From: a virus
Taxonomy: Duplodnaviria > Heunggongvirae > Uroviricota > Caudoviricetes
Length of the DNA stretch: 6,375 nucleotides
IMG/VR virus record: IMGVR_UViG_2728369593_000005
Location: 1 to 6,375 of that record
Direction: 5' to 3' (one strand)
The notes under the pieces: generated by a model
What the model saw: the letters and a program-made list of their open reading frames with translations, nothing else
Told to the model about the DNA's origin: nothing
Databases searched by the model: none
Position numbers and translations under genes: made by a program
In this document: in pieces, positions 1-6,146 of the stretch
Position numbering within the stretch: position 1 is the first letter of the stretch
Layout of the letters: every line of letters begins with the position of its first letter

Positions 1-2
1 TG

Positions 3-122
3 GTGATTTCTGATAACCAGATTTACCGTGAATGGGGAATTACTAGCGAAAACGAACACCGATTCATGGTCTTTGGAAAGGTCTTAATCAGTCAGTCGCA
101 AACCCTTAAGAGACATAATTAA
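3..122 (+). CDS. 3' end (39 codons plus stop) of an upstream prophage gene, product unknown; 5' part outside window
   Basis: Only frame 3 is open from the window edge (frames 1 and 2 hit stops within 12 nt). Translation ...VISDNQIYREWGITSENEHRFMVFGKVLISQSQTLKRHN*, stop TAA at 120-122, followed 20 nt later by a textbook intrinsic terminator. Confidence 0.45.
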   Translation: MISDNQIYREWGITSENEHRFMVFGKVLISQSQTLKRHN

Positions 123-140
123 CCTCAATATCCTTCCATC

Positions 141-162
141 GGCCACCGAAAGGTGGCTTTTT
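141..162 (+). terminator. Rho-independent terminator (GCCACC / GAAA loop / GGTGGC followed by T5)
   Basis: 6-bp GC stem 142-147/152-157 with a GAAA tetraloop, immediately followed by TTTTT at 158-162, directly downstream of the stop at 120-122. Confidence 0.75.
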
Positions 163-175
163 ATTACCTATCAAT

Positions 176-226: not shown

Positions 227-397
227 TTGTTCCAGACCAACTACAGGATTACAACAAAATCTGGTTGCAACACGGTGCATGTGTCGTAAGCAGTCAGTAA
301 ATGTCAAAAACGAACAGGCAGGACGCCCACGAAGTAGCCGCCGGTGGCGTATGAATGACCGGATGATTCGTTAAATACTATGTGTAAGAGAGCGCAA

Positions 398-600
398 ATG
401 AACCGTTATTTCACATGCTCGTTTTGTGGCGCAAACGAGCTGCAGGCAAAAAAATCATCGCCAAAGGCGGAAAAGATGAAGTTGCTATCTGCTCTGAGTG
501 CGTAGTCTTGTGTGTCGGGGCATTAATCAATATCAGCACAACTATTCGGTTCACACCAAATGAGAATGCGCCTTTAGATGCGCGGAAATCTGGAGGTTAA
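398..600 (+). CDS. Small ClpX-type C4 zinc-finger protein (about 67 aa if read through); reading frame interrupted by a -1 shift at an A7 tract (448-454), so either a pseudogene, a programmed frameshift or a sequence error
   Basis: ATG at 398 gives MNRYFTCSFCGANELQAKK and then runs out of frame to a stop at 503-505. The -1 frame (supplied ORF 415..600) continues ...KKIIAKGGKDEVAICSECVVLCVGAL.... Joined at the A run, the product has CSFCG...KIIAG...ICxECVxLC, which closely mirrors the ClpX N-terminal zinc-binding motif (CSFCGK...KLIAGP...YICDECVDLC) as I remember it. Neither half alone has all four Cys ligands. Confidence 0.6.
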
Positions 601-689
601 AGAACAAAATGAAAGTCCAGATTTTAAACAATAACTGTGAAGTCGTTTGGGCGTAAAACATGACCGCGCGTAGACCAAGGGAGGAAAAA

Positions 690-866
690 GTGGGAATAGT
701 TAGAAATCAAGCAGATATATTGAAAATCAGCTCTGAATTGCTTGGAGTTTTGAAAAGTGAGCTCACCGCACATGGCATCGAGCCCACTGACGAAAATTTA
801 AGTTGGGTTTTGTCGATTATTCAACAATCACTCAAGCCCAGCCTCAGCAAACTTTTTATCGAGTAG
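690..866 (+). CDS. Hypothetical small prophage protein (58 aa from GTG 690; alternative ATG at 660 gives 68 aa)
   Basis: Strong Shine-Dalgarno AAGGGAGG at 676-683, 6 nt before GTG 690. Product VGIVRNQADILKISSELLGVLKSELTAHGIEPTDENLSWVLSIIQQSLKPSLSKLFIE. Same orientation as the rest of the prophage operon. No homology recognised. Confidence 0.4.
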   Translation: MGIVRNQADILKISSELLGVLKSELTAHGIEPTDENLSWVLSIIQQSLKPSLSKLFIE

Positions 867-1019
867 TGCTTCGAACTTATCGTAAAGCTTGCTTATGTCG
901 TCTATCGGGTTTTCTGACGTACTGTAATTTTTATCTGATGTCATGGCAGCAGTCTGATATGCAGTGTGAGTCTTAACCGATAGTTGGAATAAATAAAGAA
1001 TTTTTTCTTCTTTGGTCAT
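828..1019 (-). CDS. Hypothetical small protein (63 aa), antisense to the surrounding operon and overlapping the 3' end of the 690..866 ORF by 39 nt
   Basis: Internal ATG (complement of 1017-1019) preceded by AAGGA with a 7-nt spacer; the supplied ORF 828..1061 has no Shine-Dalgarno at its first ATG. Product MTKEEKILYLFQLSVKTHTAYQTAAMTSDKNYSTSENPIDDISKLYDKFEALLDKKFAEAGLE. AT-rich segment. Confidence 0.35.
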   Translation of the reverse strand: MTKEEKILYLFQLSVKTHTAYQTAAMTSDKNYSTSENPIDDISKLYDKFEALLDKKFAEAGLE

Positions 1020-1099
1020 AACTATTTCCTTCTTGGCTATATGAAAACACCAAGATACCACCGAGCCTGAAGTGGTGAAAAGACAGGCACATAACAGCT

Positions 1100-1440
1100 A
1101 AGTATTTTCAACCAGAGAGAATCCTTAGCGTTGTGGTGAATGCGGCTCAGCGCACGCGGGTTAAGGTTGAGGCTGACAGTCGACCTTCTGTGGATACCCA
1201 CCCGCCTGGTGTGCAACCTTCGCCAGGCACCGGGAGGCACCCGGCACCACAACTTTATGCTGTGTGTAGTCTTGGCGGTACCAGCTTATACCCTTGCTTC
1301 CGGCTGGTACCGTCCTTTTTACAAAACAGAGAAGAGCATCACCGGACGACGGGCTCATAACCCAATCCATCCGGGCGGCAGTCACCGCAGGTGTTCTTCT
1401 CTGTTTTGTGGAGAAACTAACCGACCTTGCAGGGTCGATA
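1100..1440 (+). other. GC-rich, highly self-complementary, apparently non-coding element (candidate structured RNA or DNA site)
   Basis: Abrupt change from the AT-rich 600-1060 segment to a GC-rich one. ORFs are open in several frames on both strands but have Arg/Pro/Cys/His/Trp-rich, non-protein-like composition. Multiple stems are present, including GCCTGG 1203-1208 / CCAGGC 1223-1228, GGCACC three times at 1226-1248, and a perfect 10-bp stem at 1276-1312. Confidence 0.3.
1276..1320 (+). terminator. Strong hairpin (perfect 10-bp stem CGGTACCAGC/GCTGGTACCG, 17-nt loop) followed by T5; possible intrinsic terminator or RNA 3' end
   Basis: Arms at 1276-1285 and 1303-1312 are exact reverse complements; TCC then TTTTT at 1316-1320. 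Confidence 0.4.
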
Positions 1441-1457: not shown

Positions 1458-1820
1458 ATGGCTAGCGAACGCAGTACTGATGTGCAGGCATTTATCGGGG
1501 AGCTGGACGGCGGCGTATTTGAAACCAAAATCGGCGCAGTTCTCAGTGAAGTCGCTTCCGGTGTGATGAACACGAAAACCAAAGGTAAGGTCTCGCTCAA
1601 CCTGGAAATCGAACCGTTTGATGAGAACCGAGTGAAAATCAAACACAAACTCTCATATGTTCGCCCGACTAACCGCGGGAAAATTTCCGAAGAAGACACC
1701 ACCGAAACGCCGATGTATGTCAATCGCGGTGGTCGCCTGACTATTCTGCAGGAAGAACAGGGACAGTTACTGACTCTTGCCGGTGAACCTGACGGAAAAC
1801 TCCGCGCAGCAGGTCGTTAA
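1458..1820 (+). CDS. yfdP: Uncharacterised prophage protein YfdP (120 aa)
   Basis: GAGGAG Shine-Dalgarno at 1445-1450, 7 nt before ATG 1458. The 120-aa product (MASERSTDVQAFIGELDGG...) matches the size and my recollection of K-12 YfdP. The upstream in-frame extension to 1140 is rejected as coding. Confidence 0.8.
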   Translation: MASERSTDVQAFIGELDGGVFETKIGAVLSEVASGVMNTKTKGKVSLNLEIEPFDENRVKIKHKLSYVRPTNRGKISEEDTTETPMYVNRGGRLTILQEEQGQLLTLAGEPDGKLRAAGR

Positions 1821-1885
1821 TATCGTTTTTAATTAACTGATTATTTATCTCATCACTGAATATCTTTATATAGTGAGGACTTATT

Positions 1886-2710
1886 ATGTCTCAGAACTTA
1901 GACGCAACCGCAATTAATCAAATCCATGCCCTTATTTCTGCTCAGGGTGTTAATGAAATTATCAGTAAGATTGGTGCCGATGCTGTGGCATTGCCTGAGA
2001 ATTTCCGCATTCATGATCTGGAAAAATTTAATTTAAATCGCTTCCGTTTCCGTGGTGCGCTTTCCACTGCCAGCATCGATGACTTTACCCGTTATTCTAA
2101 AGATCTTGCAGATGAAGGCACCCGCTGCTTTATCGATGCTGATAATATGCGTGCCGTCAGTGTGCTTAACCTGGGTACTATTGATGAACCAGGTCACGCA
2201 GATAACACCGCCACACTCAAACTGAAAAAGACAGCACCGTTCTCTGCTCTGTTGTCTGTTAACGGCGAGCGTAACTCCCAGAAGTCACTAGCAGAATGGA
2301 TTGAAGACTGGGCCGACTACCTTGTGGGCTTTGATGCGAATGGTGACGCCATTCAGGCAACAAAAGCGGCTGCGGCAGTCCGTAAAATCACGATTGAAGC
2401 AAACCAGACCGCTGATTTTGAAGATAATGACTTCAGCGGCAAACGCTCCCTGATGGAGTCTGTCGAAGCGAAGACCAAAGACATTATGCCAGTGGCATTT
2501 GAATTTAAATGCGTTCCGTTTGAAGGCCTGAAAGAACGTCCGTTTAAATTACGCCTCAGCATTATCACTGGCGATCGTCCGGTACTGGTTCTGCGCATTA
2601 TTCAGCTGGAGGCGGTGCAGGAAGAAATGGCTAACGAATTTCGTGATCTGCTTGTTGAGAAATTCAAAGACAGCAAAGTAGAAACCTTTATTGGTACTTT
2701 CACCGCCTGA
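1886..2710 (+). CDS. yfdQ: Uncharacterised prophage protein YfdQ (274 aa; I recall this family as DUF2303)
   Basis: 274-aa ORF with GAGGA 6 nt before the ATG; protein-like composition; size and sequence match my recollection of K-12 YfdQ. Confidence 0.85.
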
Positions 2711-2722
2711 TTTCATTACTGC

Positions 2723-2744
2723 AAATGCCCCTGCGGGGGCATTT
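2723..2744 (+). terminator. Hairpin AAATGCCCC-TGCG-GGGGCATTT between yfdQ and yfdR (weak terminator or attenuator; T tract only 3 nt)
   Basis: Perfect 9-bp inverted repeat 2723-2731/2736-2744 with a 4-nt loop, 13 nt after the yfdQ stop. Confidence 0.3.
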
Positions 2745-2838
2745 ATGGAAACATAATTTACTCAATAATCGCCGGATGGTGAGAGATTCCTTTTACCAGA
2801 ATTCAACGCGGTGCAGCGCATATAAAGTGGAGAACAAA

Positions 2839-3375
2839 ATGTCATTTATTAAAACTTTTTCCGGGAAGCATTTTTATTATGACAAGATAAATAAAGACGA
2901 CATCGAGATTAACGATATCGCAGTTTCCCTTTCAAATATCTGTCGCTTTGCAGGACATCTTTCACACTTCTACAGCGTCGCCCAACATGCGGTGCTTTGC
3001 AGCCAGCTGGTGCCGCAGGAATTTGCTTTTGAAGCGTTAATGCATGATGCAACAGAAGCATATTGCCAGGACATTCCCGCACCACTGAAACGACTTCTTC
3101 CTGACTATAAACAAATGGAAGAAAAAATAGACGCCGTAATCCGTGAGAAATACGGGTTACCCCCAGTTATGAGCACGCCAGTGAAATATGCCGATCTCAT
3201 CATGCTGGCAACCGAACGCCGCGATCTCGGGCTTGATGATGGCTCTTTCTGGCCTGTACTGGAAGGCATCCCGGCAACAGAGATGTTCAAAGTGATTCCA
3301 CTGGCACCAGGCCATGCCTACGGGATGTTTATGGAACGCTTTAACGAGTTATCGGAGTTACGCAAATGCGCATGA
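2839..3375 (+). CDS. yfdR: HD-domain 5'-deoxynucleotidase YfdR (178 aa)
   Basis: Product MSFIKTFSGKHFYYDKINKDD...HDATEAYCQDIP... carries HD-type metal-ligand motifs and matches my memory of K-12 YfdR (178 aa). GGAG sits 9 nt before ATG 2839. The supplied ORF start at 2725 lies inside the upstream hairpin and lacks a Shine-Dalgarno. Confidence 0.85.
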   Translation: MSFIKTFSGKHFYYDKINKDDIEINDIAVSLSNICRFAGHLSHFYSVAQHAVLCSQLVPQEFAFEALMHDATEAYCQDIPAPLKRLLPDYKQMEEKIDAVIREKYGLPPVMSTPVKYADLIMLATERRDLGLDDGSFWPVLEGIPATEMFKVIPLAPGHAYGMFMERFNELSELRKCA

Positions 3376-3728
3376 ATGTTTTCGAAATGGAAGGGTTTCT
3401 TCGCGGGAAATGTGTACCGCGAGATCTGAAAGTAAACGAAACAAATGCTGAATACCTAGTACGTAAATTCGATGCGCTTGAAGCTAAATGTACAGCACAG
3501 GAAAACAAAATAATACCAGTGTCAACTGAACTGCCACCAGCAAATGAAAGTGTTCTGTTATTCGATGCTAACGGAGAAGGCTGGCTAATTGGCTGGCGTT
3601 CTCTCTGGTACACCTGGGGACAAAAAGAAACCGGAGAATGGCAGTGGACATTTCAGGTCGGGGACCTTGAAAACGTCAATATCACTCACTGGGCAGTAAT
3701 GCCAAAAGCACCGGAGAATAAGAAATGA
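3366..3728 (+). CDS. yfdS: DUF551-family prophage protein YfdS (120 aa)
   Basis: C-terminal ...THWAVMPKAPE is the signature end of the DUF551 family as I recall it. The start overlaps the yfdR stop within ATGCGCATGA. Size matches K-12 YfdS. Confidence 0.8.
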   Translation: MRMNVFEMEGFLRGKCVPRDLKVNETNAEYLVRKFDALEAKCTAQENKIIPVSTELPPANESVLLFDANGEGWLIGWRSLWYTWGQKETGEWQWTFQVGDLENVNITHWAVMPKAPENKK

Positions 3729-4039
3729 GCATAATGACCACTTTTACCGACAAAGAACTGATTAAAGAAATTAAAGAGCGTATCAGCAGCCTTGACGTGC
3801 GAGACGATATTGAGCGCCGTGCTTATGAAATCGCACTCCTATCTCTGGAAGTAGAACCAGATGAACGCGAAGCTTATGAATTATTCATGGAAAAGCGTTT
3901 CGGTGACTTAGTAGATCGTCGGAGAGCAAAAAACGGCGATAACGAATACATGGCATGGGATATGACTCTCGGTTGGATCGTCTGGCAGCAACGAGCTGGT
4001 ATCCATTTTTCAACAATGTCACAACAAGAGGTGAAATAA
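3725..4039 (+). CDS. yfdT: Uncharacterised prophage protein YfdT (104 aa; alternative start at 3734 gives 101 aa)
   Basis: ATG overlaps the yfdS stop (ATGA at 3725-3728), suggesting translational coupling. Acidic, protein-like composition; size consistent with K-12 YfdT (101 aa). Confidence 0.75.
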   Translation: MSIMTTFTDKELIKEIKERISSLDVRDDIERRAYEIALLSLEVEPDEREAYELFMEKRFGDLVDRRRAKNGDNEYMAWDMTLGWIVWQQRAGIHFSTMSQQEVK

Positions 4040-4135
4040 TAGAGCCATACAGCCTCACACTCGATGAGGCCTGTCAGTTTCTTAAAATATCCTGATCTAC
4101 CATCGCCGTCATAGAGCGTATTTTTATTACCTGAT

Positions 4136-4170: not shown

Positions 4171-4371
4171 ATGCAACACGAACTACAGCCTGATTCACTG
4201 GTTGATTTGAAATTCATCATGGCTGATACTGGCTTCGGTAAGACCTTCATCTATGACCGGATTAAGTCCGGCGACCTGCCTAAAGCCAAAGTTATCCACG
4301 GACGAGCAAGATGGTTATATCGTGACCATTGTGAATTCAAAAATAAGCTCTTAAGCCGCGCCAATGGGTAA
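4171..4371 (+). CDS. torI: TorI: prophage excisionase (recombination directionality factor) and inhibitor of the TorR response regulator
   Basis: The 66-aa product MQHELQPDSLVDLKFIMADTGFGKTFIYDRIKSGDLPKAKVIHGRARWLYRDHCEFKNKLLSRANG matches my recollection of TorI and has the AlpA/Xis-type helix-turn-helix pattern. GGAG 9 nt before the ATG. Sits immediately inside attR, as expected for an excisionase. Confidence 0.88.
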   Translation: MQHELQPDSLVDLKFIMADTGFGKTFIYDRIKSGDLPKAKVIHGRARWLYRDHCEFKNKLLSRANG

Positions 4372-4459: not shown

Positions 4460-4845
4460 GATACCCTTCAAACGATATCTACCTTCACCCCGTAAAAGAT
4501 AAGTTAGGCAGCACATTTGCCCTATCTACTCATTTTTCCTGCAACAGGTTGAAATCTCAACACGGTCAGAAAACGCTGATGACTAAACAGCCCTGGGCCG
4601 GGCGATGTAACCATCACACACAATCCTGATCGCGAAATATGGCGTGACTTGATACTTCACTCCACAATGCTTTCCTTGATGAATTCGCAGGCCCGTGATA
4701 CACGGGACAGGTCGCTGAATTACGACAATGCCCTGGAAATCAGCGAGCCGTGTATCCGGAGTACATTTGAGCGACTGTACCAGAACATGAATGAGGCGTT
4801 TGGATTAGGCGATTATTAGCAGGGCTAAGCATTTTGGTATTATTA

Positions 4846-4898: not shown

Positions 4899-6146
4899 TT
4901 ATATTGCTGAAGGTACTGGCGTTTCCATCACTATTTGCTCACGTTTTTTACTCAGGAAGAAAATGCCAAATAGCAACATCAGGCAGACAATACCCGAAAT
5001 TGCGAAAAAAACCGTCTGGTAGCCTGCGTGGTCAAAGAGTATCCCAGTCGGCGTTGAAAGCAGCACAATCCCCAACGAACTGGCAATTTGAAAACCAATC
5101 AGAAAGATCGTCGACGACAGGCGCTTATCAAAATTTGCCACGCTGTATTTGAAGACGGATATGACACAAAGTGGAACCTCAATGGCATGTAACAGCTTCA
5201 CTAATGAAATAATCCAGGGGTTAACGAATAGCGCGCAGGAAAGGATACGCAACGCCATAATCACAACACCGATAAGTAATGCATTTTTTGGCCCTACCCG
5301 ATTCACAAAGAAAGGAATAATCGCCATGCACAGCGCTTCGAGTACCACCTGGAATGAGTTGAGATAACCATACAGGCGCGTTCCTACATCGTGTGATTCG
5401 AATAAACCTGCATAAAAGACAGGAAAGAGTTGTTGATCAAAAATGTTATAGAAAGACCACGTCCCCACAATAAATATGACGAAAACCCAGAAGTTTCGAT
5501 CCTTGAAAACTGCGATAAAATCCTCTTTTTTTACCCCTCCCGCATCCGCCGCTATGCACTGGTGATCCTTATCTTTAAAACGCATGTTGATCATCATAAA
5601 TACAGCGCCAAATAGCGAGACCAACCAGAAGTTGATATGGGGACTGATACTAAAAAATATACCGGCAAAGAACGCGCCAATAGCATAGCCAAAAGATCCC
5701 CAGGCGCGCGCTGTTCCATATTCGAAATGAAAATTTCGCGCCATTTTTTCGGTGAAGCTGTCAAGCAAACCGCATCCCGCCAGATACCCCAGGCCAAAAA
5801 AGAGCGCCCCCAGAATTAGACCTGCAGAAAAATTGCTTTGCAGTAACGGTTCATAAACGTAAATCATAAACGGTCCGGTCAAGACCAGAATGAAACTCAT
5901 ACACCAGATGAGCGGTTTCTTCAGACCGAGTTTATCCTGAACGATGCCGTAGAACATCATAAATAGAATGCTGGTAAACTGGTTGACCGAATAAAGTGTA
6001 CCTAATTCCGTCCCTGTTAATCCTAGATGTCCTTTCAGCCAAATAGCGTATAATGACCACCACAGCGACCAGGAAATAAAAAAGAGAAATGAGTAACTGG
6101 ATGCAAAACGATAGTACGCATTTCTGAATGGAATATTCAGTGCCAT
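4899..6146 (-). CDS. cscB: Sucrose:H+ symporter CscB (oligosaccharide:H+ symporter family within the MFS, LacY-like; 415 aa)
   Basis: 415-aa hydrophobic multi-pass ORF. The sequence (MALNIPFRNAYYRFASSYSFLFF...) matches my recollection of E. coli CscB and is clearly LacY-like. It lies immediately downstream of a fructokinase gene on the same strand, as in the csc locus. Confidence 0.9.
   Translation of the reverse strand: MALNIPFRNAYYRFASSYSFLFFISWSLWWSLYAIWLKGHLGLTGTELGTLYSVNQFTSILFMMFYGIVQDKLGLKKPLIWCMSFILVLTGPFMIYVYEPLLQSNFSAGLILGALFFGLGYLAGCGLLDSFTEKMARNFHFEYGTARAWGSFGYAIGAFFAGIFFSISPHINFWLVSLFGAVFMMINMRFKDKDHQCIAADAGGVKKEDFIAVFKDRNFWVFVIFIVGTWSFYNIFDQQLFPVFYAGLFESHDVGTRLYGYLNSFQVVLEALCMAIIPFFVNRVGPKNALLIGVVIMALRILSCALFVNPWIISLVKLLHAIEVPLCVISVFKYSVANFDKRLSSTIFLIGFQIASSLGIVLLSTPTGILFDHAGYQTVFFAISGIVCLMLLFGIFFLSKKREQIVMETPVPSAI

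Follow-up and report, generated by a model that had tools for sequence, protein, structure and literature searches.

DnaA-directed inhibitors of replication initiation include lambda P, SirA and DiaA/HobA, and YfdR, a product of the cryptic Escherichia coli prophage CPS-53 (KpLE1), likewise binds DnaA and lowers initiation. Using purified YfdR, Noguchi & Katayama (2016; PMC4776307) demonstrated a Phe46-dependent binding to domain I of DnaA, in competition with DiaA and DnaB. The reliance on a conserved phenylalanine of domain I (Phe46 in the E. coli protein) is shared with B. subtilis SirA and DiaA (PMC4776307), whereas lambda P binds domain III. In sequence, YfdR is not related to P, SirA or DiaA; it is an HD-domain phosphohydrolase whose catalytic residues are intact. 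In the same study, multicopy yfdQ and yfdR combined with either yfdS or yfdT constituted the minimal set blocking initiation at oriC, and extracts inhibited oriC replication in vitro (PMC4776307; the initiation-inhibition findings are restated in PMC12122000). The requirement for YfdQ and for YfdS or YfdT has no parallel among the DnaA-directed inhibitors. All of these functional data were obtained by overexpressing genes of a cryptic prophage in multicopy; deletion of yfdQRST was without an initiation phenotype, the authors allow for an artefact, and in their pull-downs none of YfdQ, YfdS and YfdT bound strongly to YfdR or DnaA (PMC4776307). The first-pass annotation of the DNA studied here had named the YfdR-DnaA interaction and the inhibition of initiation, which are correct and published (PMC4776307). 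It had also called the function of the cassette unestablished, which is partly outdated, since a genetic and biochemical dissection of yfdQRST was published in 2016.

The window, i.e., the whole stretch of 6,375 nucleotides that we analyzed, carries this gene cluster as five intact ORFs on the + strand (1458-4039 in the ORF list): yfdP (1458..1820; 120 aa, the ATG at 1440 being a possible earlier start in the same frame), yfdQ (1886..2710; 274 aa), yfdR (2839..3375; 178 aa), yfdS (3366..3728; 120 aa) and yfdT (3725..4039; 104 aa from the ATG at 3725 or 101 aa from that at 3734). The block is bounded on its 3' side by torI (4171..4371, + strand), which codes for the KplE1 excisionase and TorR inhibitor, belongs to the phrog_66 excisionases and specifies a protein 100% identical to the RefSeq TorI. 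A further ORF on the same strand, a ypdJ-like remnant of the N-terminus of an SfV-type excisionase (3955..4095; ORF list), overlaps the 3' end of yfdT, and the homology to Shigella phage SfV stops at 4092, within the SfV xis gene. At the other end of the window lies the 3' end of a prophage cI-like (XRE/S24) repressor gene (1..122, + strand), placed by a 98.4% alignment of positions 1-373 to 5001-5373 of locus L165, whose XRE family regulator ends at 5122.

The five proteins are 96-100% identical to those of yfdPQRST from E. coli K-12 CPS-53 and orf32-28 of SfV, and tblastn recovers the same P-Q-R-S-T order, again at 96-100% identity, in a K-12-type locus (L083), a RefSeq locus (L001) and the SfV locus (L002). 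At the nucleotide level, SfV, SfIV, Stx2c phages and thousands of E. coli genomes carry the block with 96-98% identity, and 4691 of 5426 complete E. coli genomes match the window. These are real conserved genes and not chance ORFs, and the block is the already described yfdP-yfdT block of the CPS-53/SfV-type E. coli prophage. The description of five same-strand genes ending beside an excisionase gene is borne out in full, with torI starting 131 nt after yfdT, and so are the gene identities, with which our family assignments agree, as do the gene names that RefSeq gives in E. coli loci nearly identical to this one. In comparison to CPS-53 and to orf32-orf28 of SfV, the gene content, order, strand and torI neighbor are all alike and there is essentially no difference inside 1458-4039. 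What sets the window apart is that it retains the repressor-proximal upstream region, with an STnc100-like RNA and a leader (see below), and that its neighbor is the csc sucrose locus and not dsdC. The tight coupling that had been proposed for all five genes is accurate for yfdR-yfdS-yfdT, with overlaps of 10 nt between yfdR and yfdS and 4 nt between yfdS and yfdT (or a gap of 5 nt from the later start). It is loose for yfdP-yfdQ-yfdR, where the gaps are 65 nt and 128 nt, because the yfdQ-yfdR spacer holds a conserved terminator-like hairpin (2723-2744).

The phages SfV, SfIV, mEp460 and ST64B carry the block in the slot that corresponds to the lambda pL operon, with the cI repressor on one side and xis-int on the other, and in SfV, mEp460 and ST64B the order on one strand is cI, a variable slot, P-Q-R followed by a variable position, and xis-int. 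The same lambdoid early-left position, between repressor and xis-int and on the strand of both, is seen for our block and likewise in E. coli prophages; the positional point has also been made for the LLS and ST64B phages (PMC12315714). The succession of repressor, terminators and leader, accessory ORFs and xis-int resembles the accessory region of the lambda pL operon in map position and strand logic, with Ea22-like and DUF551 ORFs filling the same slot in related phages; it differs from the lambda pL operon in that neither N, nut and Rec genes nor an antiterminator were identified. We place the region in the early-left operon of a CPS-53/KpLE1 (SfV-type) lambdoid prophage, as its accessory part, with the immunity repressor on one side and the genes for excision on the other.

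We then asked how the five genes assort, counting co-occurrence at YfdQ-seeded loci from a species-level genome scan and from a scan seeded on a distant homolog; a further scan, seeded on the YfdQ of Xanthomonas phage CP2, yielded only four loci, and in a first scan of viral contigs the matches were all at 99-100% identity, which placed distant co-occurrence beyond its reach. The gene yfdP lies directly upstream of yfdQ in every judgeable locus (245/245, made up of 77/77, 80/80 and 88/88), including that of phage CP2, across a range spanning Xanthomonas, Enterobacterales, Marinobacter, Photobacterium and Hahella. They form an obligate pair, and the only one among the five genes. The third gene, yfdR, follows the pair in 52 of the 74 species-level loci, is absent from the other 22 and is widespread without yfdP-yfdQ; it is a frequent yet separable companion. 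Full-length yfdS and full-length yfdT each occur in 3/74 species-level loci, and, among 67 loci with a near-identical P-Q-R, in 43 and 33, respectively. Either of these two can be found without the other, and the patterns PQR--, PQRS-, PQR-T, PQRST and PQ--- are all present. In loci devoid of yfdR, the next gene codes for an SSB, a DEDD exonuclease or a C5 methylase, and downstream of the pair in phage CP2 come a 511-aa ORF and, after it, genes for Erf, an exonuclease, an endonuclease and SSB. The check on co-assortment, which had been set beforehand, thus splits the module: yfdP-yfdQ is inseparable, yfdR is separable, and yfdS and yfdT go their own ways. The block is a mosaic of three units (yfdP-yfdQ, yfdR and yfdS/yfdT) and not one five-gene system.

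YfdQ is a DUF2303 protein (E 2e-92), whereas YfdP, like YfdT, matched no model in our local copy of Pfam; homologs of YfdP bear the precomputed domain PF27127. A search of PDB sequences identifies a structure of a YfdQ homolog with 36 chains (9o7m), for which our literature search found no paper; the corresponding searches with YfdP, YfdS, YfdT and CP2 ORF38 and ORF36 gave no matches. Fold searches with YfdP and YfdQ returned no informative structural neighbors, and Foldseek with the YfdQ model against a PDB library produced no match at E <= 0.001 and did not recover 9o7m. Neither protein shows sequence or fold similarity to the SSAP (Red-beta/RecT/Erf/Sak), exonuclease, Gam or Ku families. 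The idea that YfdQ is a DNA mimic was dropped, its pI of 4.97 being unremarkable. Overproduced YfdQ has been reported to set off particle production by phage SW1 (bioRxiv 413146).

The pair is flanked by RNA structures on both sides. After the repressor gene comes a terminator-like hairpin with a T-run (141..166, + strand; GGCCACCGAAAGGTGGCT then TTTTATTA), found by consensus scan, at a place for which the SfV annotation has a rho-independent terminator. Further along, an STnc100-like RNA region (1100..1323, + strand) ends in a hairpin (1274-1314) and a U-run (1316-1320); RefSeq labels the stretch a "frameshifted hypothetical protein". It matches Rfam RF02076 over the full model length with an E-value of 4e-7, its 43.4 bits lying below the gathering score of 47, and at the gathering threshold RF02076 has no match in eight other leader-bearing genera, on which grounds we do not assign the upstream RNA to STnc100.

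Directly upstream of yfdP is a structured RNA leader (1316..1437, + strand), delineated by nhmmer, covariation and folding, in which a 25-bp helix (1316-1340/1390-1414) encloses two hairpins (1342-1374 and 1375-1388), forming a three-way junction, and a last hairpin (1422-1437) precedes the Shine-Dalgarno sequence AGGAG at 1446-1450. It lies upstream of yfdP in 37/80 species-level loci according to nhmmer. The automatic RNAalifold consensus caught part of this structure, and a hand-drawn version was tested against controls: in an alignment of 25 sequences, 90.3% of cells are paired as opposed to 35-50% in slid controls, 55 cells show double changes against 8-27 in the controls, and none of 500 shuffles attains the observed score. 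The stretch 1256-1462 folds with -92 kcal/mol (z -7.6). The leader matches no Rfam family, and upstream of yfdP a consensus scan of the + strand detected nothing resembling a sigma-70 promoter. The lambda N leader is processed by RNase III, and the long helix of the yfdP leader can be likened to it. On the other side of the pair, directly 3' of the yfdQ stop codon, is another terminator-like hairpin (2723..2744, + strand; AAATGCCCC-TGCG-GGGGCATTT), which recurs in the yfdQ-yfdR spacer of nearly all genera with compensatory changes in its stem. The covarying leader RNA and the conserved hairpin after yfdQ are new side findings of this analysis. The yfdP-yfdQ cassette that these conserved RNA structures flank ranges, as a conserved pair, from lambdoid phages of enterobacteria as far as Xanthomonas phage CP2.

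The HD-domain assignment of YfdR proved right: it matches the phrog_318 "dNMP phosphatase" profile over its full length (residues 1-178, E 6e-110), and its HD motif is conserved. With E. coli YfbR and the PHROG 318 dNMP phosphatases, with which we presumably may also count T5 Dmp, YfdR shares the HD-domain fold and the H...HD...E...D...D pattern. Its closest solved relative is Agrobacterium Atu1052 (PDB 2gz4, E 2.5e-14), with whose HD motif its catalytic residues align, and R36, H50, H69, D70, E73, D78 and D119 are kept in 98-99 of 101 homologs neighboring P-Q. By these conserved residues, YfdR is predicted to be a catalytically intact HD-domain nucleotide phosphohydrolase. It is only marginally similar to YfbR, scoring 25.3 bits against the Pfam YfbR-like model PF12917 (cut-off 25.9) and 20.6 bits against NCBIfam NF003009 (cut-off 122), the latter being the only match of any of the five proteins in NCBIfam. 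Because both scores fall below the curated cut-offs, we classify YfdR as an HD-domain relative and not as a YfbR equivalog. According to Zimmerman et al. 2008, as cited in PMC4776307, YfdR is active with a nucleotide affinity far below that of YfbR. Homologs of YfdR occur in 324 phage records, and enzymes of this type are also found in large phages (genomes of 140-350 kb) of Caulobacter, Bacillus and Stenotrophomonas.

The two remaining proteins are small. YfdS has a C-terminal DUF551 (PF04448, E 2.6e-4) and belongs to phrog_583, whereas YfdT matches phrog_660 (E 3e-31). Paralogy of the two was considered as a cause of their genetic redundancy and dropped, the BLASTP E-value of 0.37 not being significant. 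As YfdS and YfdT are not detectably related, a specific joint mechanism becomes less likely. We see yfdS and yfdT as interchangeable small mosaic ORFs of the accessory region that assort independently.

The explanation that we favor, and hold to be reasonably probable, is that of a mosaic early-left accessory region whose YfdR, with helpers, shuts off host initiation for phage development. Upon induction or infection, the operon would be transcribed by read-through of several terminator-like hairpins. YfdR, YfdQ and either small protein (YfdS or YfdT) would then block DnaA-dependent helicase loading at oriC, while the YfdR phosphatase might act on the deoxynucleotide pool in vivo; YfdP and YfdQ may form a physical complex. 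As an outcome, host initiation would be shut down and phage development favored. Against this scheme stand the multicopy origin of the functional data, the unaltered initiation upon deletion of yfdQRST, the outcome of the pull-downs, the unrelatedness of YfdS and YfdT and the low nucleotide affinity reported for YfdR. The earlier suggestion of a replication-directed "host-takeover" function agrees with this scheme, fitting the early-left operon position of the genes in functional phages. A more far-reaching proposal, which we put forward tentatively as a possibility, takes yfdP-yfdQ and the flanking RNAs as a real unit in themselves. They would be a widely distributed early-phage cassette, perhaps a new kind of phage machine whose target is the replication of host or phage DNA, in which YfdQ may form a large (36-chain) assembly and which would be controlled by the structured leader RNA, possibly an RNase III or antitermination element.

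Among the rival explanations, the one that survives best, though we think it unlikely, is that yfdP-yfdQ and their neighbors act on phage DNA through an unrecognized replication, recombination or DNA-protection function, such as an assembly on ssDNA or on DNA ends, the effect of YfdR on DnaA being secondary. The proximity of the pair to SSB, DEDD exonuclease, Erf, exonuclease and methylase genes across distant hosts points in this direction, as do the 36 chains of the YfdQ homolog in 9o7m, which suggest a large assembly, and the persistence of P-Q in the 22/74 loci without YfdR. Against it, the authors of PMC12315714 deem an unrecognized recombinase unlikely, the gene trio being present also in ArgO145 with its complete separate Rec module, and the two proteins lack any likeness to the recombination and DNA-protection families listed above.

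In another explanation, which we judge rather improbable, the host has domesticated these genes of the cryptic prophage to slow replication initiation in response to stress, for instance oxidative or alkylation stress. This was proposed by Noguchi & Katayama (PMC4776307), who report that deletion of yfdQ or yfdS raises the sensitivity to H2O2 or MMS and that multicopy yfdQRST raises resistance to hydroxyurea, and the retention of the block in most of the 5426 complete E. coli genomes would be in line with it. However, deletion leaves initiation unaffected (PMC4776307), and the same genes occur in functional phages (SfV, SfIV, Stx2c phages and mEp460) at 97-98% identity, so that phage function and recent transfer account for their conservation. 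Moreover, neither a regulator of the host nor a promoter responsive to stress emerged from the consensus scan.

Nucleotide depletion is a known defense strategy, and an HD-domain nucleotide phosphohydrolase next to uncharacterized proteins in a prophage could be read as a prophage-expressed system for anti-phage defense or superinfection exclusion, acting by nucleotide depletion or replication arrest on infection, as the first-pass annotation had also entertained. The altered stress phenotypes of CPS-53 gene deletions, as cited in PMC4776307, and a match of TorI to the small "mad1" component in PADLOC, which probably reflects only the excisionase-type HTH fold, speak for it. Yet it is very improbable: of the 5027 models of PADLOC-DB v2, not one is matched at E <= 0.1 by YfdP, YfdQ, YfdR, YfdS or YfdT; the genes reside in an early operon that runs from the repressor to xis-int with several terminator-like hairpins after the repressor gene, and not in a typical, lysogen-expressed moron slot; P-Q stands beside recombination genes in phage CP2 and YfdR-type enzymes occur in 140-350 kb phages; and the five genes do not co-assort, unlike those of usual defense systems.

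Overall, the block is ordinary and largely known, with an uncharacterized yfdP-yfdQ core, and the finding, which rediscovers an annotated and partly characterized prophage cluster, matters little by itself. Its useful outcomes are that the module is a mosaic, that the defense hypothesis is unsupported, and that the conserved core consists of yfdP-yfdQ with its RNA flanks. As a homolog of YfdQ has been solved as a large assembly, and as YfdQ is needed genetically for the DnaA-directed inhibition and can set off particle production by another phage, this pair is a tractable target for understanding the means by which temperate phages disturb the initiation of replication in their hosts.

The block from yfdP to yfdT is the known yfdPQRST cluster of CPS-53 (KpLE1), a cryptic prophage of E. 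coli K-12. It comprises five intact plus-strand ORFs, yfdP (1458-1820), yfdQ (1886-2710), yfdR (2839-3375), yfdS (3366-3728) and yfdT (3734-4039, or 3725-4039 with an earlier ATG), followed by the excisionase gene torI (4171-4371, +). Gaps of 65 nt and 128 nt separate yfdP from yfdQ and yfdQ from yfdR, yfdR overlaps yfdS by 10 nt, the yfdS-yfdT junction is a 4-nt overlap or a 5-nt gap, and 131 nt lie between yfdT and torI. By megablast, 4691 of 5426 complete E. coli genomes match the window, and the RefSeq gene names there are yfdP-yfdT. At the protein level, identity to a K-12-type locus and to SfV orf32-28 is 96-100%, and the block recurs at 96-98% identity in functional phages (SfV, SfIV, Kati, the PhiR series and Stx2c-converting phages). 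The five-gene cluster of the first-pass annotation is confirmed by these matches and was accurately described, yet it re-describes known, partly characterised genes.

A neighbourhood analysis seeded on YfdQ, in which 80 species-level genomic loci were searched with profiles of all five proteins, divides the block. The gene yfdP lies directly 5' of yfdQ in 77/77 loci having enough upstream sequence, whereas 52 of 74 have a downstream yfdR, adjacent in 47 of them, and full-length yfdS and yfdT occur in 3/74 each. Eight loci (Marinobacter, Photobacterium, Hahella, Kistimonas and Pontibacterium; YfdQ identity 41-46%), the most distant of the set, have yfdP and yfdQ without yfdR. Among viral contigs encoding a YfdQ 99-100% identical to that of the window, yfdP is adjacent in 80/80, and the 67 with enough downstream sequence contain yfdR in 67, yfdS in 43 and yfdT in 33. 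In a second viral/phage set yfdP is adjacent in 88/88 loci, the patterns being yfdPQR (33), yfdPQRST (22), yfdPQRS (21), yfdPQR with yfdT (3) and yfdPQ alone (6). In Xanthomonas phage CP2, too, YfdQ is preceded by a homologue of YfdP (39% identity). These counts show that yfdP and yfdQ are obligately paired, that yfdR often joins them as a separable third member, and that yfdS and yfdT are mosaic ORFs; the tightly coupled five-gene module proposed earlier is thereby refuted in part. HD hydrolases of the YfdR type are found in 324 phage records, among them Caulobacter, Bacillus, Stenotrophomonas and Rhizobium phages, several of which have genomes of 140-350 kb.

The pair is flanked by conserved RNA structures. 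Roughly 400 nt upstream of yfdP (1054-1457) are GC-rich, labelled 'frameshifted hypothetical protein' in RefSeq, and conserved in nucleotide sequence 5' of yfdP in 37/80 species-level loci. Within them, 1100-1323 (+) is a full-length but sub-threshold match to STnc100 (RF02076; 43.4 vs 47 bits, E 4e-7), terminating in a 13-bp hairpin (1274-1314) and a U-run; upstream of yfdP in eight other genera no STnc100 match reached the gathering threshold. STnc100 is a prophage sRNA family that, as a rule, is reported close to the late-gene antiterminator Q rather than in the early-left region. Directly 5' of yfdP is a structured leader RNA (1316-1437, +), present in related loci including L088 (7442-7602) and L115 (7405-7574) of the comparison set, in which a 25-bp helix pairing 1316-1340 with 1390-1414 encloses two hairpins as a three-way junction, and a further hairpin (1422-1437) lies just 5' of the yfdP Shine-Dalgarno sequence. 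The structure tested on a 25-sequence alignment, whose first helix starts 5 nt further in and omits the U-run pairs, pairs 90.3% of cells (slid controls, 35-50%) and has 55 double-change cells (controls, 8-27), and 0/500 shuffles reach its score; the compensatory changes span about 25 genera. No Rfam family covers 1316-1437. A terminator-like hairpin directly 3' of the yfdQ stop codon (2723-2744, +), found in nearly all genera, likewise covaries with compensatory stem changes, and two more conserved hairpins follow it in the yfdR leader (the yfdQ-yfdR spacers of comparison loci L083-L152). Together, the conserved leader and the hairpins after yfdQ suggest that transcription of the operon passes through several terminator-like signals and that yfdP-yfdQ is a bounded cassette delimited by conserved RNA structures; these elements may serve in termination, in processing by RNase III or in the control of translation. 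The conserved block starts with a hairpin GCCTG-AAGTGGTGAAAAGA-CAGGC (1063-1090, +), a possible nut-like or other regulatory element, and similar sequences, 'CCTGATGTGG(T/A)(G/T)AAAAGACAGGC', occur 5' of yfdP in Kosakonia, Kluyvera and Buttiauxella loci.

In SfV, mEp460 and ST64B the order on a single strand is cI, variable slot, yfdP, yfdQ, yfdR, variable ORFs, xis and int, so placed that yfdP-yfdT occupy the map position of the accessory region of the lambda pL operon, as was likewise pointed out for the LLS/ST64B phage group (2025 Genome Research, PMC12315714). The window opens within a cI-like repressor gene, whose 3' end occupies 1-122, and a terminator-like hairpin follows (141-158). A variable slot (374-1053) separates this gene from the conserved early block, and its cargo differs by strain: an orf33-like gene in SfV and a RefSeq comparison locus, and a minus-strand ECs1072-family gene in another (L165). 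The window's own slot ORFs at 660-866 (+) and 828-1061 (-) gave no family match; of two overlapping small ORFs, 380-505 (+) corresponds to the first half of the ClpX C4-type zinc-finger profile and 415-600 (+) to the second, and 380-600 looks like a frameshift-split phage ClpX-zinc-finger-like gene. From 1054 on, the sequence is common to SfV and other E. coli prophages. A ypdJ-like ORF or remnant (3955-4095, +) overlaps the 3' end of yfdT before torI, and homology to SfV stops at 4092, within SfV xis, marking a recombination junction with torI in place of an SfV-type xis. TorI matches the PADLOC model 'mad1' (E 7.6e-14), which probably reflects a shared excisionase/AlpA-type HTH fold only rather than a defence role. 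Beyond it lie a DUF4942 gene remnant (4649-4819, +) and a cscB-like LacY-family sucrose-type permease (4899-6146, -; E 1e-193); the prophage end adjoins the csc sucrose locus in this strain and dsdC-dsdX in others.

In YfdR, the HD catalytic set (R36, H50, H69-D70, E73, D78, D119) is kept in 98-99 of 101 homologues, and therefore enzyme activity appears to be under selection besides DnaA binding. YfdR falls short as a YfbR equivalog (Pfam 25.3 vs a cut-off of 25.9 bits; NCBIfam 20.6 vs 122), and its nearest solved relative is Atu1052 (2gz4), of unknown function. YfdQ belongs to DUF2303 and has a solved homologue, PDB 9o7m ('YfdQ Protein', E 1e-44; 36 chains in the entry), whose source by tblastn is a CP2-like Xanthomonas phage (98.8% to phage MET23-P3); a literature search found no publication for this entry.

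The interaction of YfdR with DnaA and its inhibition of initiation, mentioned in the first-pass annotation, are correct and published: yfdQRST was found as a multicopy suppressor of hda-185 over-initiation, with yfdP dispensable, and extracts with oversupplied YfdQRST inhibited oriC replication in vitro (Noguchi & Katayama, PMC4776307). Hence the function of the cassette is unestablished only in part. To YfdQ, YfdS and YfdT those authors could assign no roles. Deletion of the genes gave no initiation phenotype, and the authors, mentioning the SfV homologues, suggested, with lambda P as the analogue, that the genes ancestrally served phage growth (PMC4776307). YfdR was later cited as a prophage-encoded DnaB competitor at DnaA domain I (PMC12122000), and CPS-53 YfdQ and YfdM are reported in a preprint to be needed for, and able to trigger, phage SW1 particle production (bioRxiv 413146).

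The explanation we favour, and hold to be probable, is that yfdP-yfdT are accessory early-operon cargo used in lytic development: YfdR together with YfdQ would interfere with DnaA-dependent helicase loading at oriC and may also act on the deoxynucleotide pool, and the yfdP-yfdQ core would have a function associated with DNA metabolism. It is rather unlikely that the pair acts instead on phage DNA replication or recombination. This would fit its synteny—in CP2, YfdQ is followed by a 511-aa ORF without known function and then Erf, exonuclease, endonuclease and SSB, and in loci without yfdR the gene 3' of yfdQ encodes SSB, a DEDD exonuclease, a C5 methylase or an unknown protein—but is weakened by the ArgO145 argument in PMC12315714. 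Less probable still is that the host has domesticated the genes to restrain initiation under stress. Anti-phage defence, the more exciting interpretation, is very improbable and not supported, as the PADLOC defence models gave no match to YfdP, YfdQ, YfdR, YfdS or YfdT and nothing here speaks positively for it.

The present analysis offers as modest leads the recognition of yfdP-yfdQ as the only obligate unit of the five genes, the covarying leader RNA, and a solved, apparently unpublished YfdQ assembly brought to light here.
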